A stretch of DNA of 64,000 nt from Candidatus Latescibacterota bacterium. GTDB taxonomy: Bacteria > Latescibacterota > UBA2968 > UBA8231. Below, one piece after another: positions 6,035-39,440 of this stretch. The translations under genes were made by a program, and so were the position numbers. Location: positions 5,504,001-5,568,000 of the forward strand of contig OZ253462.1 of the NCBI GenBank assembly GCA_965261395.1, read 5' to 3'. The notes below the pieces were generated by a model. That model ran no database searches, had not been told where the DNA came from, and worked only from the letters and a program-made list of their open reading frames with translations. Numbering within the stretch: position 1 is the first letter of the stretch; every line of letters starts with the position of its first letter.

Positions 6035-6781
6035 CTAGTTTGCCTTAGCGACTTTAGGAACGACCGTGCCGTCCTTGTAAATCTTGCCGATATCTCGGAC
6101 GAATTTATAGAAAATATTGGTGGTCTCCACCGGCTCGTTTCGAAAGTCAAATCGCAGGATTACATCAAGCACTTGGACTTCGATATCACTCACGTCTGGG
6201 TGGAGCACGGGAAAAATGACAAAGCCCTCTGCCTCTTGGCCACTGAAGATCTCCTCGTCTTTGAGCATCGTCCGCCGCAGCAAGTCGCGGCGCTCCTGGT
6301 AGCGGGCATATTCGTTGCCCCTGTAGCCTATGGCATAGGCGCGATAATAAGTATCGAGTTGCTCAAAGTTGAGACTCCAATACTCTCGATTATTGCTCGC
6401 TTTGACGACTATTTTGCTTGGATCGATTTTGACTTTGGGGTAGGCGTAATTCTTAATGCTGAGACGGAAGACGGTGAATCGCTGTTTTTCTTCGTCTGTT
6501 CCCCAAAATATCGTATTGCCAAAGGTATAGGGGTTTGTAGACTTAGGACCCGTTTGGGAATTGTTGAAAAACTGGCGATTCAACTCCTCGTCTGTCATCG
6601 GCTTGAGTCGCACTTCAAAGCGATCTTGGGCAAAGGTCAGGGTCCCGTCATCTGCCACACTGATAGACGAGGCCTGTTGTTGGCCAGGCTGCAATGGCCC
6701 CGTGTAATAGCTATATCCACAGCCCAGCAAACCCGAGCCGATGACAACCAAGGTAAATAATACTCGAGTAGAATTCATCAT
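6035..6781 (-). CDS. Hypothetical lipoprotein (paralog of 22906..23664)
   Basis: Lipobox LLGC; shares VADDGT, PMTD.ELNRQF, NPYTFGN, QRFTVFR and NY.YPKV..DP blocks with the paralog. Confidence 0.8.
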   Translation of the reverse strand: MMNSTRVLFTLVVIGSGLLGCGYSYYTGPLQPGQQQASSISVADDGTLTFAQDRFEVRLKPMTDEELNRQFFNNSQTGPKSTNPYTFGNTIFWGTDEEKQRFTVFRLSIKNYAYPKVKIDPSKIVVKASNNREYWSLNFEQLDTYYRAYAIGYRGNEYARYQERRDLLRRTMLKDEEIFSGQEAEGFVIFPVLHPDVSDIEVQVLDVILRFDFRNEPVETTNIFYKFVRDIGKIYKDGTVVPKVAKAN

Positions 6782-7758
6782 TCAGAAACTCCTCCGTGGT
6801 ACAGCTTTGTGTACAAAGAGGCTTTCAAGCGCCCCCAAGACCTCGGCTCCACAGCCATCCCTTGCAAAGTACCTTCTAGCGACATCGGCATCAAGTCGGT
6901 GAAGCGATCGGAAAAGCGATACGAGTTGTGTTGGCCCGAAAGCGACCACTTAGCATCAAAAAGATCCGAATGCACATCAAGATCGTTGAACTCTACGTTA
7001 AAACCAAGGATTTCACCTTCTCGTAAGAGGTGCTCCTCGCTCTGAAAGACCGCATTGATATCAACGCGATCAAAGGGCACGAGCATGACTTCGTAGTTCG
7101 TCACTCCCTTTCCTCCCAAGACACCTGCAAACTCGACCGCCGCCCTAGTATAAGGTCCGTCGGGTAATGCGTACCAAACGGCGGCGGAATAATTGACGAA
7201 AAAATCCTCGTCGGGCGGCGGGCCAGCCAAAACGAAATGGTTAGCTTCAGTTCCGTTGCGCCGCCTATACTCTTCGTCGCTCAACTCGGTGAAATTAGCA
7301 AATTGTCCACCAGAGTGGTCCGCGTCGATAAATAATTCCATCGCATCGTCTCGAAAAATCACCTCAGCACTACCGGCGGGACGATCGATCTGATGTATAT
7401 CATCGCGAACCTGAGCGGCGATATAGAGCCTGTTCTCCGCTTTATTCCACCCTACCATGAGACGGGCAGCAAAATCGTCCGAATCGCTCGCCTCAACTTC
7501 TGGACTAATCAGGTCGTGAAACTGACCCGTTAGTATGGCGTAGGAGTCGCCTACAACCTCCCAATCTGTCAAATCTCCGTCAATGGCGGGGACCAAGTGA
7601 TCGGGAAATTGAAAGGCTCTGTAGGCCACTCCTTCGGGGTAATGCCCCAGAGCCGGTTTAGCTAAACCTACTGTTATCTGTAGCGCCAGCCCTAAAAAAA
7701 ACAACCACAACCAACACCTCAGCCGCCGCCTTCTTATTTGTTTTTTGCTATCTTTCAA
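6778..7758 (-). CDS. Secreted DOMON/CBM9-like protein with C-terminal SWGRLK motif
   Basis: PAIDGDLTDW, LYIAAQVRDD, DAMELFIDAD and GFNVEFND are CBM9/DOMON-like; the start codon is uncertain. Confidence 0.7.
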   Translation of the reverse strand: MKDSKKQIRRRRLRCWLWLFFLGLALQITVGLAKPALGHYPEGVAYRAFQFPDHLVPAIDGDLTDWEVVGDSYAILTGQFHDLISPEVEASDSDDFAARLMVGWNKAENRLYIAAQVRDDIHQIDRPAGSAEVIFRDDAMELFIDADHSGGQFANFTELSDEEYRRRNGTEANHFVLAGPPPDEDFFVNYSAAVWYALPDGPYTRAAVEFAGVLGGKGVTNYEVMLVPFDRVDINAVFQSEEHLLREGEILGFNVEFNDLDVHSDLFDAKWSLSGQHNSYRFSDRFTDLMPMSLEGTLQGMAVEPRSWGRLKASLYTKLYHGGVSE

Positions 7759-7772
7759 TTGTATGGGGCTGT

Positions 7773-7801
7773 ATGATAATCAATGGCCTAAGACGTGTCA
7801 A
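7773..7801 (-). promoter_or_regulatory. sigma70-type promoter for the exbBD/PorV-like operon
   Basis: Minus strand TTGACA-N17-TATCAT. Confidence 0.7.
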
Positions 7802-7997
7802 GATATACTTAGAGATAGCCGTGGAAACAATGGATCTATAACGAATAAAATAGATAAATAACAATAGGTTAGGTCTATTTAATCCCCATGTAAATCGCTG
7901 CAAATCCCCTCATCCACGCCTCGACTTGACTGATTATCTGAGCGATTGACGACAAAGGCATGTCTTTTTTCGTAATCGTCGGCCCGATCTGGCTATC

Positions 7998-8026
7998 TTG
8001 AGATGTTCACCAATATACTATATAAT
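7998..8026 (+). promoter_or_regulatory. sigma70-type promoter for the divergent operon
   Basis: TTGAGA-N17-TATAAT in an AT-rich intergenic region. Confidence 0.7.
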
Positions 8027-8161
8027 ATAGCGCAATGTCGACCAAGATACGCGATTAGTCCAGTCGATACGGACTGGGTTGGAGCGCGTAACCGCCGTCG
8101 GTGCCCTTGTTTTGCTCGTCGCAGGCAGCCAAGAGCTTACATTCTTGCGCGGAGGTGTTTG

Positions 8162-10816
8162 ATGATCAGGTTGTTGGTAGCGGTGCTCGGCGTCGCATTC
8201 GTACTCTGCAACGGCTATGCCGAAGTCAAGCGGTGGCGGATCGGCGACGATGTGCATCCCTGGACTCTGCGGCCGGTCACCGGTCGCCTCGACTTAGGCC
8301 GCAGTTGGGCCGTCGAGCTAATCGCCGACGACGATGGCGACGGACTCATCGACGAAGACCCGGTCGAGCTAATCGACAACGACGACGATGCGCTGATTAA
8401 CGAAGACCCCGCCGACGAGCAAGTTGACAACGATGACGACGGCCAACTCAACGAGGACCCAGCCAACGGAAGAGACGACGACCAAGACGGACTCATCGAT
8501 GAAGACCCGCCGGAATTTTTCGACAACGATCTCGACGGGCTCATCGACGAAGACGGTCCGGATCCTCAGTTCGACAATGACGGCGATGGGCTACTCAACG
8601 AGGATGGGTTGTACACTCCCTTTGACGACGATTGGGACGGCCAGCTCAATGAGGATCCGATCAACGGCAGTGACGACGACCAAGACGGACTCATTGATGA
8701 AGACCCGCCGCTACCCGAGCACGGCCAAGGCGTGACCACCTGGCTTCGGCCGGTGCGTCTCGACAGCCTGCGCAACCTTGCCTACCTGCTCAACCAGCGC
8801 TTCAAGGCTGGCGAATTCGGTGGTATCATCCCCGGCAAGGATCCCCAGCGTCCCTTTATGGTGGTGCCGAGCGAATATGGCTTTCGCCGTGAGATCGCCG
8901 ACCCGATTTCGGCCGACTACTGGGCGACCGCGCAGGTAATCGGTCGCGTCGACGCGGAAAAGTCGGTCGACGGCAACCTGCGCACGGAATACGGCTCCGC
9001 TCTCTATGGCCGCGGCGGCGTTGGCATCAACCTAATGGGCTACTACTATCTCAACCGCATTGTCTTCCGCCCCCGGCCGACCTTGCCTGCTAGCACTATT
9101 GCCAACTACTTCATCCGCTACGGCGACCAGACCACCATCGACAGCCGCTCCGAAACCATTCAAGCGCGCAGAACACTAGTCCCCGTCACCAACGGCCAGT
9201 TCAACCCGGTAGTCAAAGATATCCGATTTGATCGGCCTTTTGTCGCTGGCCGCCTCGACGTAGTCTCGACGGATCCCAAAGGCACCTACGTCGAGACTGC
9301 CGAAGCGGGCTATTTTGGCGACGGCTATGCCATTGATGGGCAGTACACTTCGGCCATCATCGACGTGGGCACGCCCACCCCGCGCATTCGTCGCTACGAC
9401 CGAGAGATCGAACAGTTCGCGGGCTCACAGCGCGATGCCTATGAAAGCCAGTTCCCCCTCGATATGGCCGGCGACCAAGTCAACTGGGGTAAGGTGCGCT
9501 GGCGCGGGCGCCGTGACAGCCGCGACGGCGACGTCCGCATCCAGTTCCGCGTTGGCAACACCCTCGACACTCACATCTACGCCCGCCGCTTGGGGCCAGG
9601 CCTTTCGGACACCCAAGATGAGAACGGCAATCCCCTTGATCTGTTTTCTTGGATTAAGATCTCCGAAGGCCGCGTCCCCGAGCGCGAGCTCCAATACAAT
9701 GAGCTTGGTGTTGACCTAGGCGACGACGGCCTCCTAGGCTGGAGCTTCTGGTCGGCACCTTTCAAGCTCGAAGACGCCCTCATCGACGAGAGCCTACCTG
9801 AAGCCGAGTGGCACAACACCGGTGTCCAGCTACCCCTGCCCGGAGGGACTCGCTACATCCAGTTCCGCATCCTCTTCGACTCCGCCCAGCACAGCGCGGC
9901 CCTGTTGGACTTCATCGAGTTCGACTACGACGCACCGCTGGTCTCCGGTGGGATCGTCGCCGAAATCTTTCCCCCACGCGTCACCTTGGGTGAAGAGACG
10001 GCCTTCCGCTATTTTGTTCGCCCATTCTTCAAAACGGGCGAGGCGACCTCCTTCAACCGGATCGAGATCTCCGTGCCCAGCGCGGATACGCGCATCGACA
10101 CCTTGCGCTTCGACGGCCAAGACTGGACCGAAATCGCCGCTGGCACGACCGCCGATCCTCTCCGCGACGTCCATCCCCTCCGCCTCGCCCCAGCAGAAGG
10201 CCGCACCGATAGCTTGGGACAATTTGCCCAGAGCGTAGTCAAGGATCCGCTCACTGGCTCGGCCAAACTACACATCAAGCTACCTTTGATGGGTGCCGAA
10301 CACTTCCAATTCGACCAGAACATTGAGATCGTCTTTCGCTCCAAGCTGTTCCGTGGCTCAGAAGAGTTCACCAGCTCAGTGTGGAATGACCAAGGCGACC
10401 CCGGCGTCGAATCCATCCCGCAACCGGCCGAGGATGGGGATGCCACACCCGACATAGCCACCAATGCCCTCCTCGTGGTCGCCGACGAGATCAACCAAAT
10501 CGTCAAGGCCCCCTACATCGCTCCAAACCCCTTTACCCCCAACGGCGATGGCATCAACGACGAAATCACTTTTTCCTTTGACCTTTTTCTCGTCCTTGAT
10601 CAGGTCGATGTTCAAGTCGAAATCTACGATCTGTCCGGTCGCCGCATCGCCCAGATTCAGACAGACGGCTCGACCGCAGGCAGCCTCCAAGTCAAGTGGG
10701 ATGGCCGCGATAGCCAAGGCCAAATCGCCCCCCCGGGCATCTATCTCTATCGACTGGCCATTGATTTAGACAATACCTCCACGGAGCGCGCAGGCACCCT
10801 ATCGCTCGCCTATTGA
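8162..10816 (+). CDS. Large secreted protein with acidic Ca-binding-type repeats and C-terminal FlgD-Ig/T9SS type B-like domain
   Basis: GGAGG RBS before ATG 8162; signal peptide MIRLLVAVLGVAFVLCNGYA; PNPFTPNGDGIND...IYDLSGR...WDGRD...PPGIYLY...LAY. Confidence 0.85.
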   Translation: MIRLLVAVLGVAFVLCNGYAEVKRWRIGDDVHPWTLRPVTGRLDLGRSWAVELIADDDGDGLIDEDPVELIDNDDDALINEDPADEQVDNDDDGQLNEDPANGRDDDQDGLIDEDPPEFFDNDLDGLIDEDGPDPQFDNDGDGLLNEDGLYTPFDDDWDGQLNEDPINGSDDDQDGLIDEDPPLPEHGQGVTTWLRPVRLDSLRNLAYLLNQRFKAGEFGGIIPGKDPQRPFMVVPSEYGFRREIADPISADYWATAQVIGRVDAEKSVDGNLRTEYGSALYGRGGVGINLMGYYYLNRIVFRPRPTLPASTIANYFIRYGDQTTIDSRSETIQARRTLVPVTNGQFNPVVKDIRFDRPFVAGRLDVVSTDPKGTYVETAEAGYFGDGYAIDGQYTSAIIDVGTPTPRIRRYDREIEQFAGSQRDAYESQFPLDMAGDQVNWGKVRWRGRRDSRDGDVRIQFRVGNTLDTHIYARRLGPGLSDTQDENGNPLDLFSWIKISEGRVPERELQYNELGVDLGDDGLLGWSFWSAPFKLEDALIDESLPEAEWHNTGVQLPLPGGTRYIQFRILFDSAQHSAALLDFIEFDYDAPLVSGGIVAEIFPPRVTLGEETAFRYFVRPFFKTGEATSFNRIEISVPSADTRIDTLRFDGQDWTEIAAGTTADPLRDVHPLRLAPAEGRTDSLGQFAQSVVKDPLTGSAKLHIKLPLMGAEHFQFDQNIEIVFRSKLFRGSEEFTSSVWNDQGDPGVESIPQPAEDGDATPDIATNALLVVADEINQIVKAPYIAPNPFTPNGDGINDEITFSFDLFLVLDQVDVQVEIYDLSGRRIAQIQTDGSTAGSLQVKWDGRDSQGQIAPPGIYLYRLAIDLDNTSTERAGTLSLAY
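8327..8710 (+). repeat. Eight imperfect D[DN]DxDG[LQ][IL][DN]ED[PG] coding repeats
   Basis: Counted in the translation; units 3-4 recur as units 7-8. Confidence 0.9.
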
Positions 10817-10870
10817 CCAAAATGCGCGACTGCTTACAGGATTTCCCTTCATCGCCACCATTCTAACGCC

Positions 10871-12967: not shown

Positions 12968-12974
12968 GAATACC

Positions 12975-14603
<1,629 letters not shown>

Positions 14604-22813: not shown

Positions 22814-22905
22814 AACGTTCTCACCTGTGTACAAAACTGCGCGGTACCGCTTGCCCAGCGGCACCGCGCAGCTAGTTGAATTTGGCTTGTGAACCTTGTG
22901 CTGCA

Positions 22906-23664: not shown

Positions 23665-23674
23665 GGGAAACCTC

Positions 23675-26425
23675 CTACTCATAACCGGCGAACACAGTGA
23701 CGAATATGGCCGTTTCAGTGCGCGCCTTTTGGGCTGAGGCACGATCAATCCGCGACACGCGAAACCCAGTCTGGGTCCACAGGTTGTAGCCTAGGTATTC
23801 GGCGTTGTTGGTAAACTGCAAGGCATAGACCAACTCGTTGCGATCCGAGCGCAGCAAATGGGTTTCCAACTCCTCGCGGAACTGCTCGACGAGCAGATAC
23901 TCTAGGCCGGTCTGTAATTCGGTGCGCGACAGAATCGGCACGTGCAGGACCAGCGACCACAGCTCGCGCAACTCGGTGGTCGCCACCCGCACCTGTGTAT
24001 CCTGGCGACGCGAGGGCCGCTGACGCTGAAACTCGCTCTTCCAACGCGGCTGTAACTTGAGGACCCCGAGGTTGAGCGTATAATCGATCTTGTTGAGGAC
24101 GCCGAAGAAGGAAGCCGTCTCGCGGATGTCCTGCTCATCAATTGGCCGCTCGTCGAAATTGGACTGTTTGAAAACCTCCCACTTAAGGCGGTTCTTGAAG
24201 TGGATGTAGTCGCTCTGGTACTGATAGCCGAGATACAAAGTATTGGCCCAACCATCGCGCAGGGGCAAGGGATCAGTATAGGGCACGAGGTCGCCGCGTG
24301 ATCCCTCTCGTACAACCCACTCAATCACATGGTCGCGGATATCGTCTCGGACCTGCCGGTAGTTGTTGTACACCTGCACGCTCCCCTTACTGGCGTAGTC
24401 CTTGTCAAAGGTCAGCAAGGCGTAATTGGTGGCGTTCTCGCGGGCCTCGGCTAGCTGGCGCTCGTCGAGGCGACCAACGGTCAGCCGCGCCTCCGGCCCC
24501 AAATGGGAACCCACGTAGATGTTGTACCCGCGCCGATCCCGTTTGTACAGGTAGTCGGGTAGGTTGTCGTTTTCAAAGCGGTCGATGATACCGTTGTTGT
24601 TCATATCAATGCCAAAGAGGAACTCGGGGCGATCGGATGCGTAGCGCAAGAACGGCTCATCGTAATCGGGCGCTGTGTTCTCGCGCAGCTCGGAATCGTT
24701 CTGATTGAAGTCGTTGATGAAGTCGTTGTTCTCGTCGAACCCTGGGAAAACCTCTCTATCCTGCGAGAAATTAGCCCGCTGCCAGTCGGGATTTCGGTCT
24801 TGGTCGTCGTTGTCGTCGACGAATTCGTAAACGAAACGGAGGTCGTCGTCGTAGTTTATATCTGCTGCATCGTTTTGGGTACCGGCTAGAAAGGAGCTGG
24901 TGCTGTAGTCGTGATCAACATTATAGACTTCGCCGAAGCCAAAGTAGGGATAAGCGCGTTTATATACGTTGACGAACCAAGCGTCGGCCGAGGTGTTGTG
25001 CGCCGTGTGCTGGGTCACGTCGGTTTCCGACCGCCGCGGATAGCGGAAGTGCTGGCGGTTGCGGTCGTATTCCCCCGATAAGTAAAACCCACTGATATCC
25101 GTAATATCGAGCGTAAAGCCAAATATCTCATTGGCCACCGGCAACCCGTATTTGACGCGCACAAAGCCCTGATTCGAGCCATCTTGCACGTTGCCGTCGG
25201 CGCGCACCGTGCGTTCGGGAACGCCTTCGGAGAGCAAGACCGGCTGACCATTGGCGTTGAGCTGGCGGTTGGAGGTAACGTCGATCCGGTAGTCGTTGGC
25301 CAAAAGCAACAGAAACTCAATGCTCTTGATCTGCTCGGGCTGGGGGCCGAAGGAGTTGCGGTACTGCGGGCCTTCTAGATCGTACACCAGCACGATGACC
25401 TCGTTGCCATCGGCCGAAAGGAATCCTTCGCGGCGGAAGCCGCCCTGCACCGCCGGGCTAAAGTCGAGGATGTTGTTGTTGCCGATGCGGCGGCGATTGC
25501 TGATGCGCTCGCCGTCAATTGTTGTAATGATCATCTCCTCCTGAAAGAAGGCCGTGCCCGCCTTACTGTCCTCGGGCGAATCGTCGCTCAAGCGCACTTC
25601 GATACGCGAAACGTCGGCGTTGTTCTGGCCCTCGGTGAGTGTGCCCTTGAAGGGGTTGCCCTGAAATGCCTGCCCCTTAGTCGAGGAGTTGAAAGCATTG
25701 ATGTAAGTCGCTCCCAACTTGACAAAGTCGCCGACCTGCATGGTGCCACGGCCGCCGATCAAGTTGGTGTCGTTCGAGCGGAAACGACCGGAGCTAGTCG
25801 TCTGCGCCGTTTCGACCTTACCGGGTGAACTGGGGCGCGAGGTGAGAAAGGTCGCCTCGTATTTGTCCGTAGAAAAGTCGAACTGAATACCGGCAAAGGT
25901 CGGCTTGGAAAAGGTCATCGGCGTCAGCGTCGTGCGGATGCGGTCGCCAATGGTCAGGGCATAGGCGTATTGGCCCTTCTGATCTGAGGCGATGACCAAG
26001 TTCGTAAACCAGCTACCGAATCGGGGGGTTTTAAACAGGCTGCTGCCCGATGTCTGCGGTGCTGCAATGCTCCAGTCGTAAATGAGTTCGCCGCGGGTGA
26101 TGTAATTCCCGTAGAGATCGTAGAAATAGTCGCCTTCTTGGCTGGTGTTCACATAGCGCGAATAATGCCGACGGGCGTAATTGGTATAGTCCTGTTGCCG
26201 CCATTGGTACTCGTTGAAGAGCTCCTGCGGCACGTACCACTTCTTCACCGCTGGATCCAGCGCGTCGAAAAGTATCCCCGGCCCAGTAGGGTCGTAAAAA
26301 ACCTCCCCGCCACGGCGCACGCCCAAGCGCGAGCCGAAATCTTCCTGTGCGGGAAGATTTTCCACCATCGCTCCCAACATCAGGATCGCCACCGCACCGG
26401 TGCGGAAACTCCTAACTATGTCCAC
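23675..26425 (-). CDS. Secreted 916-aa protein, putative outer-membrane beta-barrel with acidic Ca-binding-like loops
   Basis: Signal peptide; amphipathic strands in the C-terminal third; DDNDDQD, DENNDFINDFNQND and DMNNNGIID loops. Confidence 0.6.
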   Translation of the reverse strand: MDIVRSFRTGAVAILMLGAMVENLPAQEDFGSRLGVRRGGEVFYDPTGPGILFDALDPAVKKWYVPQELFNEYQWRQQDYTNYARRHYSRYVNTSQEGDYFYDLYGNYITRGELIYDWSIAAPQTSGSSLFKTPRFGSWFTNLVIASDQKGQYAYALTIGDRIRTTLTPMTFSKPTFAGIQFDFSTDKYEATFLTSRPSSPGKVETAQTTSSGRFRSNDTNLIGGRGTMQVGDFVKLGATYINAFNSSTKGQAFQGNPFKGTLTEGQNNADVSRIEVRLSDDSPEDSKAGTAFFQEEMIITTIDGERISNRRRIGNNNILDFSPAVQGGFRREGFLSADGNEVIVLVYDLEGPQYRNSFGPQPEQIKSIEFLLLLANDYRIDVTSNRQLNANGQPVLLSEGVPERTVRADGNVQDGSNQGFVRVKYGLPVANEIFGFTLDITDISGFYLSGEYDRNRQHFRYPRRSETDVTQHTAHNTSADAWFVNVYKRAYPYFGFGEVYNVDHDYSTSSFLAGTQNDAADINYDDDLRFVYEFVDDNDDQDRNPDWQRANFSQDREVFPGFDENNDFINDFNQNDSELRENTAPDYDEPFLRYASDRPEFLFGIDMNNNGIIDRFENDNLPDYLYKRDRRGYNIYVGSHLGPEARLTVGRLDERQLAEARENATNYALLTFDKDYASKGSVQVYNNYRQVRDDIRDHVIEWVVREGSRGDLVPYTDPLPLRDGWANTLYLGYQYQSDYIHFKNRLKWEVFKQSNFDERPIDEQDIRETASFFGVLNKIDYTLNLGVLKLQPRWKSEFQRQRPSRRQDTQVRVATTELRELWSLVLHVPILSRTELQTGLEYLLVEQFREELETHLLRSDRNELVYALQFTNNAEYLGYNLWTQTGFRVSRIDRASAQKARTETAIFVTVFAGYE

Positions 26426-26471: not shown

Positions 26472-29400
26472 TCAATAAGCCACGTGAACGAGGCGCGTCA
26501 ATTTGCTATCTTGATCGTCGGCTTCTACCTTGATCTGACAGAGATAGATCCCCGGCGGCACGATGTGCCCACCCAGATCCCGACCGTCCCACACAAACGC
26601 CTGCGTCCCTACCTTGCCACCAGTCGCCAAGCTCTGCCCTTGGCCTACCAAGCGTCCTCCCAAATCGTACAATGCAACTTCCAACGGACGCTCCTCCTGC
26701 ACCTTCAACAAAACAAAATGCACCAAGAGCTCGTCGTTGATCCCGTCGCCATTGGGCGTAAAGACGGGTGCCAGCTCTACGTCTTGGATCAAAGACCCCC
26801 GCAGAGCCATCAAGCTGACCTGCGCCGTCGAAGAATCCACCAACTCGGTCGCATCCTTATCGGCGGTGTCCACCCGTTGGAATACGCCCTCATCCGAATC
26901 CGAAGACCGCACAAACGAGGCGAATTCAACGCCCTCGCGGAAGCTCTGCGACGCAAACTGCACCTCAATGAGGGCGTGCTGGCCAGCCGGCAGATCAGCA
27001 TTGAGCGAAAAGGGAAAACGCACCCAGATCGAATCCTCACCGGTCGCCATGCGTTCCAACACCTCGCCATCTATCTCGCGCAAAACCCCGTCGTCGCCCG
27101 GGGCAAAGGCACGGTCAAACTGCGTGGTCGTCGCCGAGGTCAGCACTTCCTCCGGGTTGAGGAGCGAGGACGTCTGGGCGATGGCGACCTGTCCCAAGCG
27201 CACGCCGGTCAAGCGCGCAGCACGCGACGCGACGACCAGCACCTCGTTAAAGCCGTCGCGCACCGTCGCATCGGTCGGATCGGGCGCGGCAGCGCGGATG
27301 AAATAAGAAAACTGCTGCGGAGCGAGCGGATCGATATTGCGCGGCGGGATGTAGTCCGAGGTCTGCACATCCAAGTCGGTCGGCACGCGCGCGGCTCCCT
27401 CTTCGGTGAGAAGCGCCAACTCACCGGCCAGTTCTAGCGCCAGCGGTGGGGCCAGCTCAATGCGCAAACTGCGGATGCGTGCCGTCTTGAAGGGATCCTC
27501 GGAGGAAATATTGACCCGCACCTGAATGAACTTGCGCGGGTTGGGCGAAGTGATCGTGGCCTCGTTGACGCCATTGGTGGGCAGATAGCTTTCGCTCCAC
27601 TCGCTCCAACCGACGAAGGCCAGTTCGCCGTCTTTGTCAAAGCTCGACCGCGGCGCCCGGCGCAGTTTCTTGCCGTCCTCGTCCACGAGGCCGTCGCCAT
27701 CGTTGTCAATCAGATCAATCGGATCCTCGTCGGTGACCCCGTCGCCATCGTCGTCCGTGCGCGAGGCGTGTTGCTGGCTGGCGGGCAGGGTCTGCCAGAT
27801 CTCCCAGGCCGTCCACTTCAAGGCGATATCGTCGTAGACCTCTTTCGCCACTTCCTCGCGCTCTTCGCTGCCGGCGATGGTCACGACTTGATAGTACGTG
27901 AAGTTGCTGTCGGTCTGGTCGGAGGTGCGAGTCTGTATCTGCAAGCGGACATCGGGGTGGAGATCCAGGGGCTCGATCCGCTCGACGGCTTGGCCGGTGA
28001 ACGGATCGGTCTCGCGGACGACTACATCGCCTTCCCAAGCAATGCGCGGCAGGGTTTTGCGAATGAAGTTGCCACGTGAATCAGTCAGCGTAATCGGCGG
28101 TGAGTAGGCCCACACGCTGACCGGATAGCCTTCGCCGTAGAGCTGAATCTCGCCCAAGGTCGCCAGCGCGCCGTAGCGACCGGATACCTGCCCGGTGACG
28201 TCGATATCGCGGATTTGCAGAAAGCGGATCTTGCGCCGGGGAAAAGTCTCGCGGAAAATGCGCACTACCGGCGTGTGGTTATCGATGTGCTCCTCACTGA
28301 TGATGTTGTCCCACTTGAGAGATTCTTCGAGCAGGGGGAAGTCTTCGCGGTCGTTCATGCTCACGGGTTTGAGCAGCGTGCCGTCAGAGACTAAGATATC
28401 CGGCCCCAAGAAGGCCCCTTGGTGACTCTGGTTGATGCGCTTGTTGACTACCGAGACATTATCGACCCAAAACACGGCCCCTAAGTCGTACCAGGCCGTG
28501 CCCTTGAGGTAAATCGGCGACCACGTATTGGCCTGCCACTCCGAGTCGTAGAGCCCGTCGGTGGCCAAGTTGGGCGCGCCCAAACCGCCGTTTTCAAACG
28601 AAGCCCCGCCACGCCTTTCTGGCTGCAGCGCGTAGTTGTCGCCCTTAGCCCAGACCTGAACCTCGGCGATACGAGGAACTTCTTTGCTGTAATAAAGAAT
28701 CGGACCGCGCTTCCCCTCGGGTAAGGTTTGGTATTTTTCGCCGGCGGTCTGATTGGCATCGTCCTGGAGTTCGACGAGTAGGCCACCGGCAGTTTGGCGC
28801 TGATAGACGATCGCACCGCGCTGCTCTTGGGGCAATGCTTCATAGGCAAGACGCGCCTCTTCGTCAGCACCTAAGAAGGAATCACGCCAGAGATCCGAAT
28901 CCGTAATTTTGATGCGGACGTAATGGATGAAGGCACCGCTAATATCGGGCAGGCCATCCAAATCCCAGTCGGCCCGATCCAGCGGCAAGAGCGGGAAGGT
29001 CATCTGCGCATAGCGACCTTCGGTTCCGGGCATCGAAACCAGCGTTACTTCACCGGTCTCACCCCCTCCCCCACCTGCACAGCGGGTCTCGCCGGCGTAG
29101 CCCGAGCCTTCATCGCGTACACACTGGGCCAATTTGCCGGCGACGAAGCCAGTAGATACTTGCCCTATGAGGGAAAACTTGAGGTTGTTGCCCAAGGGAA
29201 AGGGAAAACGCTCGCCCATCGAGGCGAAAAGCGCGAAGGACTTGACCGGCTCGCCGAGGAACTCGTCTTCGAACTGACCAGCGGGAAAGATGATCGTCAG
29301 GCTATCGGCAAAGACCAACCGTCCCAAATCAACTTCGATTTCCCAGTTGCGCAGGCCGTCGAGATTGAAGTCCCCAGGGCGGGTCAAACGACTCGCAAAA

Positions 29401-29807
29401 TCGGCCGGCGTGTCCGGCTCCCAGAAGGTACTCAAGTCGCCATCGAGGACATTATTGGCCAAGGCATCGTTGGATTTGGCCGTCGCGCCCCCGGAGATTA
29501 GATCACCACCAGCACGAACCAAATCAGGATAGGTGAAATCGACAGCCGTCGGGGCCGCGTTGATATTGCGGCGAAAAAACGTCGGCCGCAGCCCATCGGC
29601 TTCAACTCGGAAAATATCCGCATCGCCGATTGACACGTTCAATTGGGAGACCAAGTCGTTCTGATAACTCCAGTTCTCCCAGTGCGAAGCCCGATCCACG
29701 CGGATCGAGTTGCCAAAAATCCTATAGGCATCCGTTTGAGCCAGACAGAAACTAGGCAGAGATAGTACGGCGAAGAGAGCCGTCTTCCACTTTAGCAGCC
29801 GTTTCAT
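26472..29807 (-). CDS. Large secreted protein with discoidin-like domains and C-terminal FlgD-Ig/T9SS type B-like domain
   Basis: Signal peptide; LDGDLSTFW...VDLGR and TDGLYDSEW...YDLG; VFTPNGDGIND...WDGRD...PPGIY...VAY. Confidence 0.85.
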   Translation of the reverse strand: MKRLLKWKTALFAVLSLPSFCLAQTDAYRIFGNSIRVDRASHWENWSYQNDLVSQLNVSIGDADIFRVEADGLRPTFFRRNINAAPTAVDFTYPDLVRAGGDLISGGATAKSNDALANNVLDGDLSTFWEPDTPADFASRLTRPGDFNLDGLRNWEIEVDLGRLVFADSLTIIFPAGQFEDEFLGEPVKSFALFASMGERFPFPLGNNLKFSLIGQVSTGFVAGKLAQCVRDEGSGYAGETRCAGGGGGETGEVTLVSMPGTEGRYAQMTFPLLPLDRADWDLDGLPDISGAFIHYVRIKITDSDLWRDSFLGADEEARLAYEALPQEQRGAIVYQRQTAGGLLVELQDDANQTAGEKYQTLPEGKRGPILYYSKEVPRIAEVQVWAKGDNYALQPERRGGASFENGGLGAPNLATDGLYDSEWQANTWSPIYLKGTAWYDLGAVFWVDNVSVVNKRINQSHQGAFLGPDILVSDGTLLKPVSMNDREDFPLLEESLKWDNIISEEHIDNHTPVVRIFRETFPRRKIRFLQIRDIDVTGQVSGRYGALATLGEIQLYGEGYPVSVWAYSPPITLTDSRGNFIRKTLPRIAWEGDVVVRETDPFTGQAVERIEPLDLHPDVRLQIQTRTSDQTDSNFTYYQVVTIAGSEEREEVAKEVYDDIALKWTAWEIWQTLPASQQHASRTDDDGDGVTDEDPIDLIDNDGDGLVDEDGKKLRRAPRSSFDKDGELAFVGWSEWSESYLPTNGVNEATITSPNPRKFIQVRVNISSEDPFKTARIRSLRIELAPPLALELAGELALLTEEGAARVPTDLDVQTSDYIPPRNIDPLAPQQFSYFIRAAAPDPTDATVRDGFNEVLVVASRAARLTGVRLGQVAIAQTSSLLNPEEVLTSATTTQFDRAFAPGDDGVLREIDGEVLERMATGEDSIWVRFPFSLNADLPAGQHALIEVQFASQSFREGVEFASFVRSSDSDEGVFQRVDTADKDATELVDSSTAQVSLMALRGSLIQDVELAPVFTPNGDGINDELLVHFVLLKVQEERPLEVALYDLGGRLVGQGQSLATGGKVGTQAFVWDGRDLGGHIVPPGIYLCQIKVEADDQDSKLTRLVHVAY

Positions 29808-29841
29808 AGCATTTCCTTTCTTTTCGCGTTTCTAGCTAAGG

Positions 29842-32325
29842 CTAATACGCTACGGAAACGATGCGCGTCTGGGCCTTGCCCGCATGATCGGCTTCGGTCG
29901 AAATGCGCAACATGTATAGGCCCGGAGGCACTATCTGTCCAGCATCGTCGCGACCGTCCCACTGTTGCGAATACCCTCCCGACGACAAACGGAGCTCAAT
30001 GAAGTGCAGGCACCGACCGTTTAAATCGAATATCTCCAGATACACCGGCTTCGGCGTTAGCAGCCGCTGGACGTCAAAAGTCACGACTACTTCGTCGTTG
30101 ACGTCGTCGCCATTAGGCGTAAAAGGATTGGGCGCGACCTTGAAATTGGTCACGAGGTTCTCGCTCTGCGCTGAAATATCGGCGATCACCGCTAGGGAAT
30201 TACGATCTGAGAGCTGGTCCGTCGCGACGAAATCAACCACGTCATTGTCCTCTACTCGCTGTGGCAAGAAAATGGCCAGCGTATCGAGCGCACTCTCGCT
30301 ACCCCCGAGCGCCAAAATGCCGCTCCTGGTAAAGTGTCGCTCTGTTTCTGCACCTAAGGTGTCTAAGAAGACATTGGCAGCGAAGTTGGTGCGGAAGTCG
30401 ATGACCCGACCCTGAAAGCGGACTTTTACCAATGCGTTGCGAACTTGGCCATCCTCGGCTGGGCTGATGGTCGGAAAACCAACGACGAACTGATCGTCGG
30501 CAACGTACAATTCTCGAAACTGACCTTCGCCGATTTTGCCCTCGCCGTCCATTCTTTCCAAGTTCAGGAACTTCCCGTCGCCTAGATCCACTTCCACCCC
30601 CTTAATGGCCTCTGTGCGCGCCGGAGTAAAAACCTGCAAGCGATTAAAGCCGTTGTTCTCGGCCCCTAACCCAGCGTTGAGGACCAGTACAAAGGAGGTG
30701 TCGCGGCCAGCGATCACATCCACGGCCGGAGCAATCTCGCCGAAGACCTGATCCGTGATCTGTGGGGCGGAGTATTCAAAGCGCAAGTTGCTAATAATTG
30801 TGGCCGCCTCAGGCTCCTTGCTCAGAAACTCAACCTCTATCTGAATGAAGGGCCGACCACTTGGCGCGTTGATTAGCTCGCCGTTATTGACCAACTGGAC
30901 ACCACTCCAGAACTCAAGCTCGGGTTCGACGTGACGCCGCTCATTGCCCGGCAGGGCCTTGTACTCGTCGCGGGTAAGCCGCACGCGTTGGCGATCCTCT
31001 GGTAGGGCGGCGCTGAAGAGTTCGCGTGCATCTAGGTTGAGTTCGGGATCGTTCAGGTCCACCCCTTGGCCGAAGGTCCTAGAGCCGAGCCGTTGATCAA
31101 TGATGATCGCTCCTTCCTCTTTCCACTCCACCTCGCGCTCAAAATCGTTGACGCGAAAAAGCACATCCGGCTCGGGATTGACGCCTGTCTGTACGCGCAC
31201 GATAGCGCGCGACCTGTTGGGATCGCCAATTTTTCGCTCGTCCCAGAAGATCCGCCCCAAGGTCGCCGGGGGCAGCGGTAGTGCATTGGAAGTATAAACC
31301 GCTTCAGGAAAAAAACCGTCGGCAAAAAACTCCATTTCAGCCAAGTCGTAATCCAGCGGAGTCTGAAAATCAAAGCGCGCATAGCGCATGTAGGCCTGCG
31401 GATTAAAGGCCACGGCAATGGTGTCTTCCACATTGACCGGTACGCTTGCCTCGGAAACGAAGGTTGGAAAAGTCGAGGCTATCTTAGCGAACGTAGGGAA
31501 CGCCAACTGCCCAATTTTTGGATCGTCGAGACTAAGACCGGCGATTACCTTCTCAGTCCCAGGCAGACCCCTATAAAAGGTATAAGCGGAAACACGCGCG
31601 GGCTCTTCAAGACTGGGATAGAGGCGGAACAAGCTAATTGGAAAGTAGCGTCCCAAGTCAATATAGAGGGACCATATCTGCTTGACGTCCTGCCCGACTC
31701 GGTCGATGCGCTCGAAATGGGTCAGTGGATCGCCATCGAAAACGCGCCCTAGCCCCTCTTGGAGTCGCTGGCCGGTCAAAGTCCTTTCAAAAATGCCGAG
31801 AGTCGTGAGGTTGAGCCCCTTGTTGTACTTGTCGCCGCCGGGAGGGCGGGGAAAAGATTCGGCCACGTTGATCATGGCCTCAATCTCGGCAATGCCAGCC
31901 CGGCGCAATAGCTGGACGGCCTCTAGGCTACGCGGAAAGGAACTCCAGCGAGGGACCAAGACCGTGCCCGCCTTTACAATCGCACCATCGTCGAGTTCGA
32001 TCTCAGTCGGTGCTACTACATCTGCTCTAGTTACATTGAGTGAGAAGGCAAAGAGGGTAGAATCGGTCGCCGCATCCACTTCGTCGGCGGTTAATGCGAG
32101 AGGAATTTCGGGAACGGGCACTACACGCGTTGGCAAGATGGGCCCAATGCCATTCTCATAGCTTTCAAAGTCTATTACTTCAATGAAGCGACTCTCTGAA
32201 AGCGGCCCCTGCTTGGCGTCGACCCAAGTTGTGTTGCCCGGAATGGCGAACAGGCGCAACTCCGCAGCAGCATGTACTACCCAACCTGCCAAAACCAGCG
32301 CGGCGACACAAATCCCAATTCTCAT
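29842..32325 (-). CDS. Large secreted protein with C-terminal FlgD-Ig/T9SS type B-like domain
   Basis: Signal peptide; VFDGDPLT...IDLGRYF; PNPFTPNGDDVND...WDGRD...PPGLY...VAY. Confidence 0.85.
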   Translation of the reverse strand: MRIGICVAALVLAGWVVHAAAELRLFAIPGNTTWVDAKQGPLSESRFIEVIDFESYENGIGPILPTRVVPVPEIPLALTADEVDAATDSTLFAFSLNVTRADVVAPTEIELDDGAIVKAGTVLVPRWSSFPRSLEAVQLLRRAGIAEIEAMINVAESFPRPPGGDKYNKGLNLTTLGIFERTLTGQRLQEGLGRVFDGDPLTHFERIDRVGQDVKQIWSLYIDLGRYFPISLFRLYPSLEEPARVSAYTFYRGLPGTEKVIAGLSLDDPKIGQLAFPTFAKIASTFPTFVSEASVPVNVEDTIAVAFNPQAYMRYARFDFQTPLDYDLAEMEFFADGFFPEAVYTSNALPLPPATLGRIFWDERKIGDPNRSRAIVRVQTGVNPEPDVLFRVNDFEREVEWKEEGAIIIDQRLGSRTFGQGVDLNDPELNLDARELFSAALPEDRQRVRLTRDEYKALPGNERRHVEPELEFWSGVQLVNNGELINAPSGRPFIQIEVEFLSKEPEAATIISNLRFEYSAPQITDQVFGEIAPAVDVIAGRDTSFVLVLNAGLGAENNGFNRLQVFTPARTEAIKGVEVDLGDGKFLNLERMDGEGKIGEGQFRELYVADDQFVVGFPTISPAEDGQVRNALVKVRFQGRVIDFRTNFAANVFLDTLGAETERHFTRSGILALGGSESALDTLAIFLPQRVEDNDVVDFVATDQLSDRNSLAVIADISAQSENLVTNFKVAPNPFTPNGDDVNDEVVVTFDVQRLLTPKPVYLEIFDLNGRCLHFIELRLSSGGYSQQWDGRDDAGQIVPPGLYMLRISTEADHAGKAQTRIVSVAY

Positions 32326-32483: not shown

Positions 32484-32505
32484 AGAAAACAGCAGGATGC
32501 TACTG

Positions 32506-33402
32506 TTACTCAAACGCGGCCTTGATGCGGCCCCAAGAGTCTTCTTCGACTGCCGTTTCACCAGTTCCGACCAAGCGACCATCGGCGAAGCGCTCGGCAT
32601 AGCGCCAAGTCGCGGCCTGACCAGTCAAGGTGTGAAAAGCGCGGTAGTTGCTCGGCTCGATATCCATGTCTGGAATCGAAATTTGGAAGCCAATGATCTT
32701 GCCGTCGAAGAGAGGCGACGGAACGCTGTCATCCGGGCTGTTCCAGATCAGGTCGTCGAAAGGCGTGACGAAGAATTCAAGGGCTGTAACCGTCGGTCCG
32801 TCGCCGACCGAACCGCCACCGCCATCGGCGTAGGGCAGCGAGTTGACCCACTCGGTGCCTTTGCCCAGATAGCCAACATGACGGCCGTCAGGAGTATCGC
32901 CGATAGCCACATACTGCTGAGCCGTGCGGTTGTTGTTCAGGTCCTTCTCTTCGTCGGTCCAGTTCTCATCGGCCGAACCAGTATAATCGCCACCGGTGTG
33001 GTCGCCATCAAGCATGAACTCAATGGAGTCTTGCCTCCACAAGCTACCCAAGTCACCGCCAGCGTATTCGTTGATGTACGTATTGTCGATGCGCTCCATA
33101 CCCAGCCAGATGGTGCCGGCATTGCCGTTCCAACCCAGCCAAATGCGATAATCTAGGTCCGCCGGATCGTACTGGGCACCCTCGCCCACGGTCGGATCCG
33201 CAAAGAAATCAGTAGCGATCAGCGAAGGGTCACCAATTACATCTTCCCAGTCGGCTATGCTGGCATCGCGCAGATCAATATCAGCCAGATCAGCTTCGGG
33301 GAGCTCAAAGAGCAGGTAAACCTGTTCGCCAATATGCGCACTGGCACCGCTCGTCAGGCCCAATATCAGGCCCATAGCGACAAGGCCATATAGACGTTTC
33401 AT
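32506..33402 (-). CDS. Secreted DOMON/CBM9-like protein with C-terminal SWGRIK motif (paralog of 6778..7758)
   Basis: AAGGAG RBS; signal peptide ending ASA; LGWN, DSIEFMLDGDHTGG, PFD and G.IIGF blocks shared with the paralog. Confidence 0.75.
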   Translation of the reverse strand: MKRLYGLVAMGLILGLTSGASAHIGEQVYLLFELPEADLADIDLRDASIADWEDVIGDPSLIATDFFADPTVGEGAQYDPADLDYRIWLGWNGNAGTIWLGMERIDNTYINEYAGGDLGSLWRQDSIEFMLDGDHTGGDYTGSADENWTDEEKDLNNNRTAQQYVAIGDTPDGRHVGYLGKGTEWVNSLPYADGGGGSVGDGPTVTALEFFVTPFDDLIWNSPDDSVPSPLFDGKIIGFQISIPDMDIEPSNYRAFHTLTGQAATWRYAERFADGRLVGTGETAVEEDSWGRIKAAFE

Positions 33403-33611
33403 AAGCTGCAACTCCTTCCAATATCCCTTATCGGGAGTGTGGTGGTGTTTGGGGTAACAACCTTTTCGGCTCAATCTGCGTAGTAGCATGGGCTATCGCT
33501 TATTGCCTCCGTAGGTCTGTCTTCCCCTCGTAGAAAGCTACGCCCACTAGCAATCGACATCCGACCTTCCCGACCAGTCGGAGCCGCTGTAGAGGGCCTT
33601 TTATTCGGCGT

Positions 33612-33640
33612 AATATAGGATATTCGCCACTATGTTGCAA
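33612..33640 (-). promoter_or_regulatory. sigma70-type promoter upstream of the 33402 gene
   Basis: Minus strand TTGCAA-N17-TATATT. Confidence 0.6.
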
Positions 33641-33701
33641 GTATTTACACTCTGCAGGGATCGGTCAGTAAGCAGGACGCACTTATTGAGAATCTCCGGC
33701 G

Positions 33702-34643
33702 CTATCTATCGTCATTACTGTCTCCGGTGTTACTATCTCCGGCGCTTTCTTCAGCACTGTCGTCAGCACTGTCGTCAGCACTGTCGTCAGCACTGTCGTC
33801 AGCGCTTTCTTCGTCCTTATCTTCCCGAAAGCGAATCTGCTTTATGTCGTGCATACCAATCGCAAACGGACTCGAACCCATAACGCCCGTAAAGGCCCGG
33901 TTGACGCGCTCGAAATAGCTCCTGTCGGTCTCGCCCGAGAGGCGAACTATGCTCGCCTCGACCGTGCCCATAACGCTTTTTCCCGACCAATAGGTTGCCG
34001 TTATCGGCCTGAACTCGTCGCCCGTCCCGCCGTCCTCAAAGTCGATTCGCTCTACTTTGTTTAGGGGGATAAAGCGCTTGTCGCGGCCCCTAAAAAAGTC
34101 GAGCCGCTGCTTGCCGTGAAAGCGCAAGTTTTCCACCTCAAAACGCCTGCCGTTTGTCGTAATGATCGTGGCCTTAAGGATCTTTTCTTCAGGCGGCTCC
34201 TCGCCAACGGGATGGCGCAAGACAATCTCTTGCACATCGCTGGCGAGGATGAAGAACGGCCCCAACTCGGTCACCCCAGCGAAGCGACGCCCACTACTTC
34301 CACCGCCAACGGCGTCTTGGTGGGGCGAAGAAGAGCCGCCCGTCACCATCAAGCCCGCTTCTTGGCCGCCATTCCGGAATACGAGCACGACGCGCTGTTC
34401 CTCATCGCTGCGCTCCCCTTCAAAGCGCAACCGAGCCACCTTGACCAGTTCCACCAACCGACGCTGTCCTTGGACGTAGATTGCCAAATCCTGACGCCCT
34501 TGAAAGGTGAACTTATCTACTTGGTGCTGGTTGCCGTAGCGATCGATAATAGTCGCCTTGAGAGGAGAAGTAGCAGCTCCACTGGCCGACACCCATAGCG
34601 CGGCCAAGAGTGCAGCTCCACCCCATAGTCCTTTGCGCTTCAT
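33702..34643 (-). CDS. Secreted hypothetical protein with two-fold internal domain repeat and acidic tail
   Basis: Signal peptide; LKATII...G...V..(F/L).F.G unit occurs twice. Confidence 0.75.
   Translation of the reverse strand: MKRKGLWGGAALLAALWVSASGAATSPLKATIIDRYGNQHQVDKFTFQGRQDLAIYVQGQRRLVELVKVARLRFEGERSDEEQRVVLVFRNGGQEAGLMVTGGSSSPHQDAVGGGSSGRRFAGVTELGPFFILASDVQEIVLRHPVGEEPPEEKILKATIITTNGRRFEVENLRFHGKQRLDFFRGRDKRFIPLNKVERIDFEDGGTGDEFRPITATYWSGKSVMGTVEASIVRLSGETDRSYFERVNRAFTGVMGSSPFAIGMHDIKQIRFREDKDEESADDSADDSADDSADDSAEESAGDSNTGDSNDDR
33751..33803. repeat. 12-bp tandem repeat (TCAGCACTGTCG) x4 plus a partial unit
   Basis: Seen directly; encodes (DDSA)n. Confidence 0.95.
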
Positions 34644-34663
34644 GGTATTGCTCCGCGATAAGC

Positions 34664-35362: not shown

Positions 35363-35467
35363 CTTTCCCTCCTTGTGACGAGCTGTGGAAAACGGACTTA
35401 ACTGCCTAAGAGCCCAAGATGGTGGACATAAGGTGAACATAATATATAGGCTCTCTGCCGCTGTCAA

Positions 35468-37078: not shown

Positions 37079-37084
37079 GTCAGA

Positions 37085-38260: not shown

Positions 38261-38296
38261 GTATTCTCCTTACTGAATTATTGTACACTCGGCTGA

Positions 38297-38980
38297 TCAG
38301 GCTAGACCACTGAGTATCCGCAAGCGCTTGCCGAGATGATCCATCAACTCGTTGATATTGGTGAAGGAATCCGCGTAGAGCGGTTCGTCAACCCGAAAGT
38401 ACACCCGAGCCCCAGGCCGAGTGTAACTTTCGTATTCTAGGCCAATGGGGATCAGCGGCACGCGCATCCCCCATCGTTTCTCTGCCTGTACCAGATGCTC
38501 TATCACTTCCTTTTTCAGCGGCCCCAACTCGTCCCGGTAGCGCGTGCCCTCTGGATGCGACACGACCAGTTCTCCGTGGCGGTAGAGCCTGTCTAAGTAA
38601 TCCTGCATTTGTTGGTTGGCCGCACGGGCACGGGCGATTTCGGCGCGGCGTTGTTGCCGGTCCGCGATCCGCCTGACATCTTTGGGGCGCACTACCTTGA
38701 GCCCCCCGCACCACTCCGAGACTCCCCACACGCCGACCTTCATAATGTAGGTAGCATAGCGTCGGGCGATTCTGTACAGCAAGACTCCTTCGACGAGGGG
38801 GTCGCGATAGGCGCAATGCTTGGGCAAGAGCAAGCCAGGTCCCTCGCGCGGCAGGTGGTGCCCGCCCTCGACGGAGAGGCGGTAATAGCTCAAGGCACCT
38901 GCCGCGAGTAAGCGAGCACCGCAGGCGAGGGCATCCACGCGCTTGAGGGAAAAGTCTTTATGCTCAGGCTCTGCGGACAT
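38297..38980 (-). CDS. PlsC-like lysophospholipid acyltransferase
   Basis: HX4D (HCAYRD) and HPEGTR motifs. Confidence 0.85.
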   Translation of the reverse strand: MSAEPEHKDFSLKRVDALACGARLLAAGALSYYRLSVEGGHHLPREGPGLLLPKHCAYRDPLVEGVLLYRIARRYATYIMKVGVWGVSEWCGGLKVVRPKDVRRIADRQQRRAEIARARAANQQMQDYLDRLYRHGELVVSHPEGTRYRDELGPLKKEVIEHLVQAEKRWGMRVPLIPIGLEYESYTRPGARVYFRVDEPLYADSFTNINELMDHLGKRLRILSGLA

Positions 38981-38984
38981 GACC

Positions 38985-39440
38985 CTACCTGAACAAGTCC
39001 TTTACCTTGCCCCAGGTGCTTTCGTCCACTTCTGTAGACAGGGGTTGCAACAGATCTTGACCCGGGCCGGCCAAGCGCAAAGTGCCCTCGGGATCTATGG
39101 TTGCGAAATAATCTCCGTCGGCGTCCAGCCGCGCTTTGATATACGCGGGTACCTCTGGGGACTGCGCGGCCATAGCGGCCGACCACAGGGTCAGGCCCTC
39201 GGCCATCGCTAGCACTTGTCCGTCGCGGACAATGGCGACAAACCGCTGCTCGGCATCCTGCGCGCGCAACTGCCGCCATAGCTGTAAAACCCGCTGGCGC
39301 TGTGGGGCCCTATCGGGCGAGAAGACGTAGAATACGCGGCTGTCTTCCGGCAGGGCCTGAATCTCGCTGCTGCCCGCTCCACGCGCTGCGACCAGCAGCA
39401 GGACCAAGCTCGTCGTCCATGTCGTTCGTAGTGCGTTCAT
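38985..39440 (-). CDS. Small exported protein with C-terminal TWGKVK motif
   Basis: Signal peptide-like N-terminus; ends STEVDESTWGKVKDLFR. Confidence 0.7.
   Translation of the reverse strand: MNALRTTWTTSLVLLLVAARGAGSSEIQALPEDSRVFYVFSPDRAPQRQRVLQLWRQLRAQDAEQRFVAIVRDGQVLAMAEGLTLWSAAMAAQSPEVPAYIKARLDADGDYFATIDPEGTLRLAGPGQDLLQPLSTEVDESTWGKVKDLFR

Follow-up and report, generated by a model that had tools for sequence, protein, structure and literature searches.

Tripartite C-terminal signals (i.e. LPXTG/sortase, PEP-CTERM/exosortase, GlyGly-CTERM/rhombosortase and MYXO-CTERM/myxosortase) are short motifs that occur on dozens of unrelated exported proteins per genome and have a patchy, lineage-specific distribution, as set out in two sources (bioRxiv 10.1101/2023.06.07.544157; PMC11980579). 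The C-terminal domains (CTDs) of the type IX secretion system (T9SS), i.e. Por_Secre_tail (PF18962/TIGR04183) and the FlgD_ig-like and CHU_C domains, are C-terminal on Sec-exported proteins of the Fibrobacterota–Chlorobiota–Bacteroidota (FCB) group and are joined to many unrelated passengers. Here we analyse a short C-terminal tail that resembles both. It was noticed on three exported proteins in 64,000 nucleotides of Candidatus Latescibacterota bacterium (assembly GCA_965261395.1, contig OZ253462.1, positions 5,504,001 to 5,568,000; hereafter the window, in which coordinates of the form start..end are counted), and an earlier note on this DNA had put it forward as a candidate sorting signal. 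Like the tripartite signals, it combines a short motif with many unrelated exported carriers and a patchy, lineage-specific occurrence. Our results show that the tail is portable, strictly C-terminal, limited to exported proteins and under selection at the protein level, and that it swaps places, in either direction, with folded C-terminal domains that serve surface export or attachment.

Three tail-bearing proteins of the window

The three open reading frames (ORFs) singled out in the earlier note have the endings described there, and each product opens with basic and then hydrophobic residues ahead of an A-x-A-type site, in agreement with the signal peptides claimed for all of them. The first gene (6778..7758 (-), whose stop shares 4 nucleotides with the start of the gene that follows) encodes an exported CBM9-fold protein of 326 residues. 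It contains ...MAVEPRSWGRLKASL, then 11 more residues, and its tail motif (6814..6867 (-); residues 298–315, ...AVEPRSWGRLKASL) scores 24.0 bits with the tail hidden Markov model (HMM) described below. The second (32506..33402 (-)) also encodes an exported CBM9-fold protein, of 298 residues when counted from the Met at 33402, although the frame stays open to another ATG upstream, at 33489. Its C-terminus reads ...ETAVEEDSWGRIKAAFE, and its tail (32509..32559 (-); GETAVEEDSWGRIKAAFE-stop) scores 31.6 bits. The third (38985..39440 (-)) encodes an exported 151-residue protein of no known family that ends in ...STEVDESTWGKVKDLFR, i.e. ...TWGKVKDLFR; here the tail (38988..39041 (-); LSTEVDESTWGKVKDLFR-stop) scores 19.6 bits, and D139 to F150 are invariant in 24 homologs. 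No further tail-bearing ORFs were found in the window.

The first two products are paralogs with 28% identity, and once tails are stripped the third has no similarity to either that blastp detects, as the earlier note had supposed. PF06452 (CBM9_1) matches the 6778..7758 product weakly (26.3 bits against a cut-off of 23.4) and does not match the 32506..33402 product in the Pfam scan. CBM9_1 on the first protein is the only Pfam match among the three, and the NCBIfam scan of the three gave none. The homologs of the third protein, among the 120 listed, are all close (77–95% identity) and are therefore uninformative about alternative endings.

The AlphaFold2 model of the 32506..33402 protein has a mean predicted local distance difference test (pLDDT) score of 80.5 and a beta-sandwich body. 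Residues 279–298, which comprise the tail with its low-confidence linker, have a pLDDT of about 50, and the short helix at residues 291–297 is unpacked against the domain. In this one confident model, which represents a single family, the tail is thus not an integral part of the folded domain.

Position, conservation and carriers of the tail

The genome is a single contig of 6.55 Mb with 59% G+C, for which our own calling gave a set of 5351 non-overlapping genes. A six-frame search for WG.[LIVM]K returned 104 occurrences. In 69 of these the frame is open for 100 codons or more upstream, and 55 of the 69 end 2–14 residues before the stop, with 4 as the commonest spacing. Within the gene set the pattern occurs 57 times and ends no more than 20 residues from the C-terminus in 45 cases (expected 6.9%; binomial P 1.4e-41). 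From the separate raw list of 57 pattern matches that also yielded the 52 true carriers discussed below, five (261929, 1349379, 1707898, 1868666 and 4396398) were rejected as chance, having neither the upstream A-V-E and [ST] nor an HMM score. A 21-column HMM of the tail, run against all 23,000 ORFs of at least 80 residues, gave 53 matches (independent E ≤0.022), three of which have Ala instead of Gly. All 53 end within 12 residues of the stop, and the best internal match reaches just 10.1 bits.

The consensus is [ST]-A-V-E-x-x-[ST]-W-G-x-[ILV]-K-x-x-[FLY], about 16–20 residues long, and comes after a flexible linker whose length varies. Nineteen tails drawn from different families all keep W, G and K, with T-A-V-E and the [ST] ahead of W nearly invariant as well. 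In 25 paralogs with 21–49% identity to the window protein, conservation peaks in the tail, and the linker ahead of it varies in length. In the window's genus the ending is relaxed, with F, L or Y at +3 after the Lys and then 0–11 further residues. The conserved positions use every synonymous codon (four each for Gly, Thr, Ala and Val, and both AGY and TCN for Ser); conservation therefore acts at the protein level.

When carriers are stripped of their tails and compared (blastp, 1e-4), they fall into 13 groups without detectable mutual similarity: one large family of 30 members, small families of 4 and of 3 members, four small families of 2 members each, and six singletons with the full motif. 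The tail is thus far from confined to one family. Pfam names three of the small groups, i.e. sCache_2, the PD40 propeller and FGE-sulfatase. The large family has the CBM9 fold, with 1i82_A as the top Foldseek match (E 9.8e-10, TM(target) 0.76); both paralogous window proteins are assigned to CBM9 on this fold and, for the first, on the Pfam match, and are putative sugar-binding proteins.

A crude rule for signal peptides picks out 44 of the 52 true carriers. Of the eight that it misses, inspection by eye shows a hydrophobic leader in six; one of the others is a 71-residue fragment and one has an uncertain start. Applied to the gene set, it picks out 38 of 45 tail proteins, compared with 1056 of 4531 other genes, i.e. 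the enrichment among exported proteins with diverse N-terminal domains that the earlier note had asked about, and the tail was not found on cytoplasmic proteins. The carriers are small (140–430 residues) compared with CTD proteins (median 731 residues).

Three side observations concern the carriers. First, among the CBM9-like paralogs (both window proteins and an alignment of 25), most have A-x-A|H at the predicted signal-peptidase site, such that the mature proteins would begin with His. An N-terminal His is a feature of histidine-brace copper proteins. Second, Foldseek comparisons show a resemblance of the fold to two haem-binding subunits, EBDH gamma and NxrC. A metal or haem site in the CBM9-like proteins is possible. 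Third, a 71-residue remnant of a PD40-type tail protein (G000:C1:1562872-1563087), about 3.5 kb from two intact tandem copies, keeps ...SWGWIK... and is probably a decayed paralog.

Alternation with folded C-terminal domains

Searching 1.84 billion representative proteins with the 32506..33402 protein returned 805 relatives. Among the best 150 of the 805, 108 end in the motif and several more in close variants such as W-S-R-I-K. Another 12 in that subset are long proteins (488–1813 residues) that are tail-free and end like T9SS CTDs; Pfam confirms FlgD_ig or Por_Secre_tail in all seven of the long relatives tested. At 55 homolog loci from named metagenome-assembled genomes, 52 carry the tail, two a CTD and one is masked. 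One CTD-bearing homolog is 79% identical to the window protein over residues 1–292, and in a CTD-bearing ortholog a T-A-V-E-like stretch marks the start of the extension too. The earlier note had likened the T(A/E)V(E/D)E stretch to the linker ahead of T9SS CTDs, and sister proteins bear a T9SS CTD at the place of the tail. The possibility that the long homologs are fusions with the downstream neighbour gene was considered and rejected: only the CTD aligns (E 4e-4), and the extensions at loci L048 and L072 are otherwise unrelated to the gene downstream in the window, hence no simple fusion.

A second folded ending is the PKD domain. Of the 37 CBM9-like proteins encoded in this genome, 32 bear the tail and two a C-terminal PKD domain; these two PKD-ending paralogs lie at G000:C1:3983267-3984334 and 3716713-3718047. 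In family f10 (genome G051, loci L115-L119), all five CBM9-like homologs examined end in a PKD-like motif, as judged by eye. Tail and T9SS CTD were not found together on any of the 207 CTD proteins of this genome, as collected with our own iterated HMM.

Distribution across Latescibacterota

We searched 168 Latescibacterota genomes with the tail profile (E ≤1e-3 per genome) and found the tail in 93. All 24 genomes of the window's genus are positive, with 12–80 matches each. Within one class the split is clean: all 75 genomes of family f1 are tagged, against none of the 56 in the sister families f2 (0/31), f3 (0/3) and f4 (0/22). In the other families the tail is present in f5 (3/3), f6 (3/3), f7 (1/1), f8 (1/1), f9 (2/2), f11 (1/1) and f12 (5/6), occurs in f10 in 1 of 13 genomes, and is absent from f13 (0/1) and f14 (0/5). 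In five distant positive genomes it reads ...T-A-V-E-x-x-[ST]-W-G-x-[IV]-K-x-[LS]-F-[KR]-stop, on CBM9-like, FGE-type and Cache-type proteins and on unknown proteins.

We then compared this profile with those of other envelope genes. LIPO250, an unnamed lipoprotein family of about 250 residues, has the same family-level profile as the tag in the 168 genomes except in f10 and f13: it is present in f1 (75/75), f5 (3/3), f6 (3/3), f7 (1/1), f8 (1/1), f9 (2/2), f11 (1/1) and f12 (5/6), absent from f2 (0/31), f3 (0/3), f4 (0/22) and f14 (0/5), and found in 11 of 13 genomes of f10 and in the one of f13 (1/1). It is also in all five distant tag-positive genomes. A family of giant barrels (about 900 residues) is present in five of five distant tag-positive genomes and in one of five tag-negative ones. 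In four tag-negative genomes (one each of f2, f3, f4 and f14), the CBM9-like family, the giant barrel and LIPO250 were all searched for and none was found. As for the T9SS, this genome has SprA, a PorV-like protein and PorU. The T9SS was rejected as the determinant of the tag, since SprA occurs in 163 of 168 genomes, all of f2, f3, f4 and f14 among them, and of the tag-negative families only f13 (0/1) lacks it.

Gene neighbourhood

Genes for CBM9-type tail proteins sit in multi-copy cassettes together with a SurA-like peptidyl-prolyl isomerase, LIPO250, giant barrels, T9SS-CTD proteins, and tetratricopeptide repeat (TPR) or GT-C proteins. In the window, the tail gene at 6778..7758 is followed by a LIPO250 gene (6035..6781 (-), 248 residues) that is translationally coupled to it through the 4-nucleotide overlap, then by an outer-membrane barrel of the PorV/PorQ/PorP family (5064..5999 (-); NF033709 at 77 bits, below the curated cut-off of 90) and by a TPR protein of 1083 residues with BamD/YbgF/PorW-like repeats (1755..5006 (-)). 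Divergently on its other side lies a T9SS-CTD protein of 937 residues (8003..10816 (+)), which opens with about ten acidic repeats (D-G-L-I-D-E-D-P / D-N-D-D-D) of calcium-binding-like character. Directly downstream of the tail gene at 32506..33402 are two T9SS-CTD (CHU_C/FlgD_ig) proteins of 1111 and 827 residues (26472..32325 (-)), and the same operon-like block holds a 916-residue member (23675..26425 (-)) of the giant-barrel family (46 paralogs). A LIPO250 paralog of 280 residues (22906..23748 (-)) and the SurA-like isomerase of the cassette (21152..22906 (-)) are also encoded here.

Association of the tail with these genes extends beyond the window. Genome-wide, a CTD gene is the immediate neighbour (±1) of 17 of 45 tail genes, against a background of 5.6%, and this holds for 14 of 26 CBM9-type carriers versus 3 of 19 others. 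Of the 11 LIPO250 matches in the five distant genomes, 8 are located no more than 360 nucleotides downstream of a same-strand tail match. LIPO250 is a candidate partner of the CBM9-type tail proteins.

The giant barrels have no Pfam or NCBIfam match. Two conserved stretches stand out in this family: directly after the signal peptide, Y-G-x-R-L-G…L-D-P-x-V-K-K-W-Y-V-P-Q; and, in an alignment of 21 paralogs, a nearly invariant acidic block, D-N-D-D-x-D…N-N-D-F-I-S-D-F-N-Q-N-D-N…D-L-N-N-N-G-W-I-D, that resembles calcium-binding repeats.

The third tail protein lies in a same-strand block (39448..40674 to 33702) with five other kinds of genes. That block encodes a 408-residue protein weakly matched by FlgT_M, a PlsC-type acyltransferase, a PD40 propeller, a GT-C (PMT_2) glycosyltransferase and two unknown proteins, and may be an envelope-modification operon. 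At 33702..34643 an exported protein of 313 residues ends in D-S-A-D repeats, and the opposite strand reads as H-C-R-Q repeats; the two readings indicate a short DNA tandem repeat at about 33,700–33,800.

Possible function of the tail

We infer that the tail is probably recognised by a protein of the cell envelope, which would dock or sort the bearer there; the compartment and the partner are likewise inferred. The tail is a portable peptide tag appended to small single-domain Sec-exported proteins, and would do the job that a T9SS CTD or a PKD domain does in sister proteins. For CBM9-fold carriers, the most likely docking site would be the outer-membrane cassette that encodes them (i.e. the giant barrel, LIPO250 and T9SS-CTD lectin-type proteins). 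The invariant W-G and K, with the near-invariant T-A-V-E and [ST], are kept across unrelated proteins and distant lineages, which argues for recognition by a protein rather than by lipid.

The earlier note had suggested that the neighbouring PorV-like barrel or the TPR proteins might read the signal. It identified the barrel correctly, but just 1 of 12 such barrels in the genome adjoins a tail gene, so a PorV-family barrel was rejected as a general reader. Eighteen tail genes have a TPR protein encoded nearby; TPR genes are, however, very numerous (about 120 linked by BLAST), and nothing about them is tail-specific. LIPO250 and the giant barrel are the best reader candidates for the CBM9-type carriers. 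A further-reaching proposal, which we offer tentatively and with clearly less confidence than recognition as such, is that the tail and its putative reader may form a new pathway of envelope sorting or surface docking in uncultured FCB-related phyla, separate from the T9SS CTD route and from sortases and exosortases. The reader in Latescibacterota might then be a component of the giant-barrel/lipoprotein cassette, with LIPO250 as first candidate, and small, anchor-free sugar-binding and sensor-type proteins might be plugged onto an outer-membrane platform through a peptide of about 15 residues.

Several results weigh against recognition and docking in the envelope, or narrow what can be built on it. 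(i) No reader of the tail was identified. (ii) The non-CBM9 carriers (Cache, PD40 and FGE-type) look like ordinary periplasmic proteins and lie mostly away from cassette and CTD genes, with a CTD gene at ±1 in 3 of 19 cases and at ±3 in 6 of 19 (background 14%). (iii) A single family supplies 75 of the 93 positive genomes. (iv) The co-occurrence of tag and cassette is confounded, in that the cassette's own CBM9-fold proteins make up the main group of carriers and the genomes share ancestry. (v) SprA is found in all tag-negative families (f2, f3, f4 and f14) except f13 (0/1), and a genome of f10 has the CBM9-like protein, the barrel and LIPO250 as distant copies without the tag; neither the cassette nor the T9SS therefore suffices to predict the tag. 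(vi) The 2–14 mostly polar residues after the Lys in the window's genus vary in number, which argues against recognition of a free carboxylate. (vii) The AlphaFold2 model of the third window protein, with a pLDDT of 44.6, is unusable, with a helix drawn at residues 140–150. (viii) Our gene calls and signal-peptide rule are crude.

The main rival explanation, which we consider unlikely, is that the tail is an in-plane amphipathic helix that weakly holds exported proteins at a membrane (the inner membrane on its periplasmic face, or the outer membrane on its inner leaflet), with no protein reader. It would act in the manner of the C-terminal membrane-targeting sequences of MinD or PBP5. The spacing of W, [ILV] and [FLY] at i, i+3 and i+7, with R/K and K between them and an acidic stretch before, suits such a helix, and AlphaFold2 places helices at residues 291–297 of the 32506..33402 protein and 140–150 of the third protein, both at low confidence. 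The periplasmic look of the non-CBM9 carriers and the varying number of residues after the motif also agree with it, as does the place of the tail in the stand-alone sCache_2 carriers. In sensor proteins with a Cache domain, a second transmembrane helix follows the domain, and it is at this place that the tail sits. However, the tail has just three hydrophobic positions, and its sequence is conserved far beyond what an amphipathic pattern needs; known membrane-targeting helices conserve pattern rather than sequence. Furthermore, the CBM9-like family alternates the tail with T9SS CTD and PKD endings, not with transmembrane helices or lipoboxes.

Alternatively, the tail could be a processing signal, i.e. 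a propeptide or recognition site for a periplasmic or outer-membrane protease or transpeptidase, which would be cut near W-G or linked through the invariant Lys and would act transiently. We regard this as improbable. The invariant Gly and Lys, the flexible linker, the presence of PorU in this genome and a position like that of other cleaved C-terminal signals would fit (the T9SS CTD is cleaved by PorU), but no dedicated enzyme was found and none is encoded beside the tail genes. Such processing would also overlap with docking by an envelope protein rather than exclude it.

A recent origin of the shared ending through copying of DNA (gene conversion or cassette shuffling), or through chance, with no function of the tail itself, is excluded: thirty carriers are indeed paralogs of one family in repeated cassettes, but all synonymous codons are in use, the tail is nearly invariant in paralogs as little as 21–49% identical, and 13 unrelated groups, conservation in other families of the phylum and the P value of 1.4e-41 all speak against it.

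About 1% of the proteins of this genome bear a conserved C-terminal label that lacks a Pfam or NCBIfam model, and among the carriers is the family that has expanded most in the outer-membrane cassette characteristic of the phylum. If the tail is an address or docking tag, it would reveal a sorting route without known machinery in phyla without cultured members, and would be a simple annotation marker for envelope proteins. The split between 75 of 75 genomes in family f1 and 0 of 56 in its sister families makes the reader directly searchable by phylogenetic profiling.

Comparison with known C-terminal signals

Scans of Pfam and NCBIfam with the tails alone and with whole proteins found no model for the tail, which answers for NCBIfam (release 20, June 2026) the question raised in the earlier note. 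For 19 tails compared on their own with NCBIfam, its curated models of ultrashort C-terminal motifs included, even a threshold of E 10 brought up nothing but two chance matches, both to unrelated enzymes (E 0.13 and 0.17). A search of the ESM Atlas with the tail part alone gave no usable match, and full-text literature searching turned up no paper that describes the tail in the portions of text it returned.

Among the tripartite signals, no LPXTG, PEP-CTERM, GlyGly-CTERM or MYXO-CTERM model matched in the NCBIfam scans of the tail proteins, and no cognate sortase-like enzyme was identified. Unlike in these signals, neither a transmembrane helix nor a basic cluster follows the motif in the tail. 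The earlier note was right that it is not a transmembrane-plus-basic tail, since the listed tails end 2–14 residues after the Lys and contain no hydrophobic run.

Two other kinds of C-terminal element were compared. Alternating hydrophobic residues and an aromatic residue at the very end of a beta-barrel protein define the outer-membrane beta-signal. The tail was rejected as a beta-signal: its carriers have soluble folds (CBM9, Cache, PD40 and FGE), and its aromatic residue usually lies 1–3 or more residues from the end. The membrane-targeting sequence of MinD and the anchors of PBP5/PBP6 are similar to the tail in length and likewise amphipathic with aromatic and basic residues. In contrast to these helices, the tail is strongly conserved in sequence across unrelated proteins, lies on the far side of the inner membrane and alternates with CTD and PKD domains.

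The T9SS CTDs are the nearest in context. None of the models PF18962, PF13860, PF13585, TIGR04183 and TIGR04131 matched in the three window proteins or in 20 further tail proteins, while the neighbouring CTD proteins do match T9SS CTD models. The tail consists of about 20 residues of linker and short helix, and the CTD is an Ig-like sandwich of 70–100 residues; the tail is on smaller proteins and is never combined with a CTD, and the T9SS also occurs in lineages without the tag. In brief, C-terminal sorting tags are well known as a kind, and the present tail differs from them in having neither a transmembrane-plus-basic part nor a folded T9SS domain.

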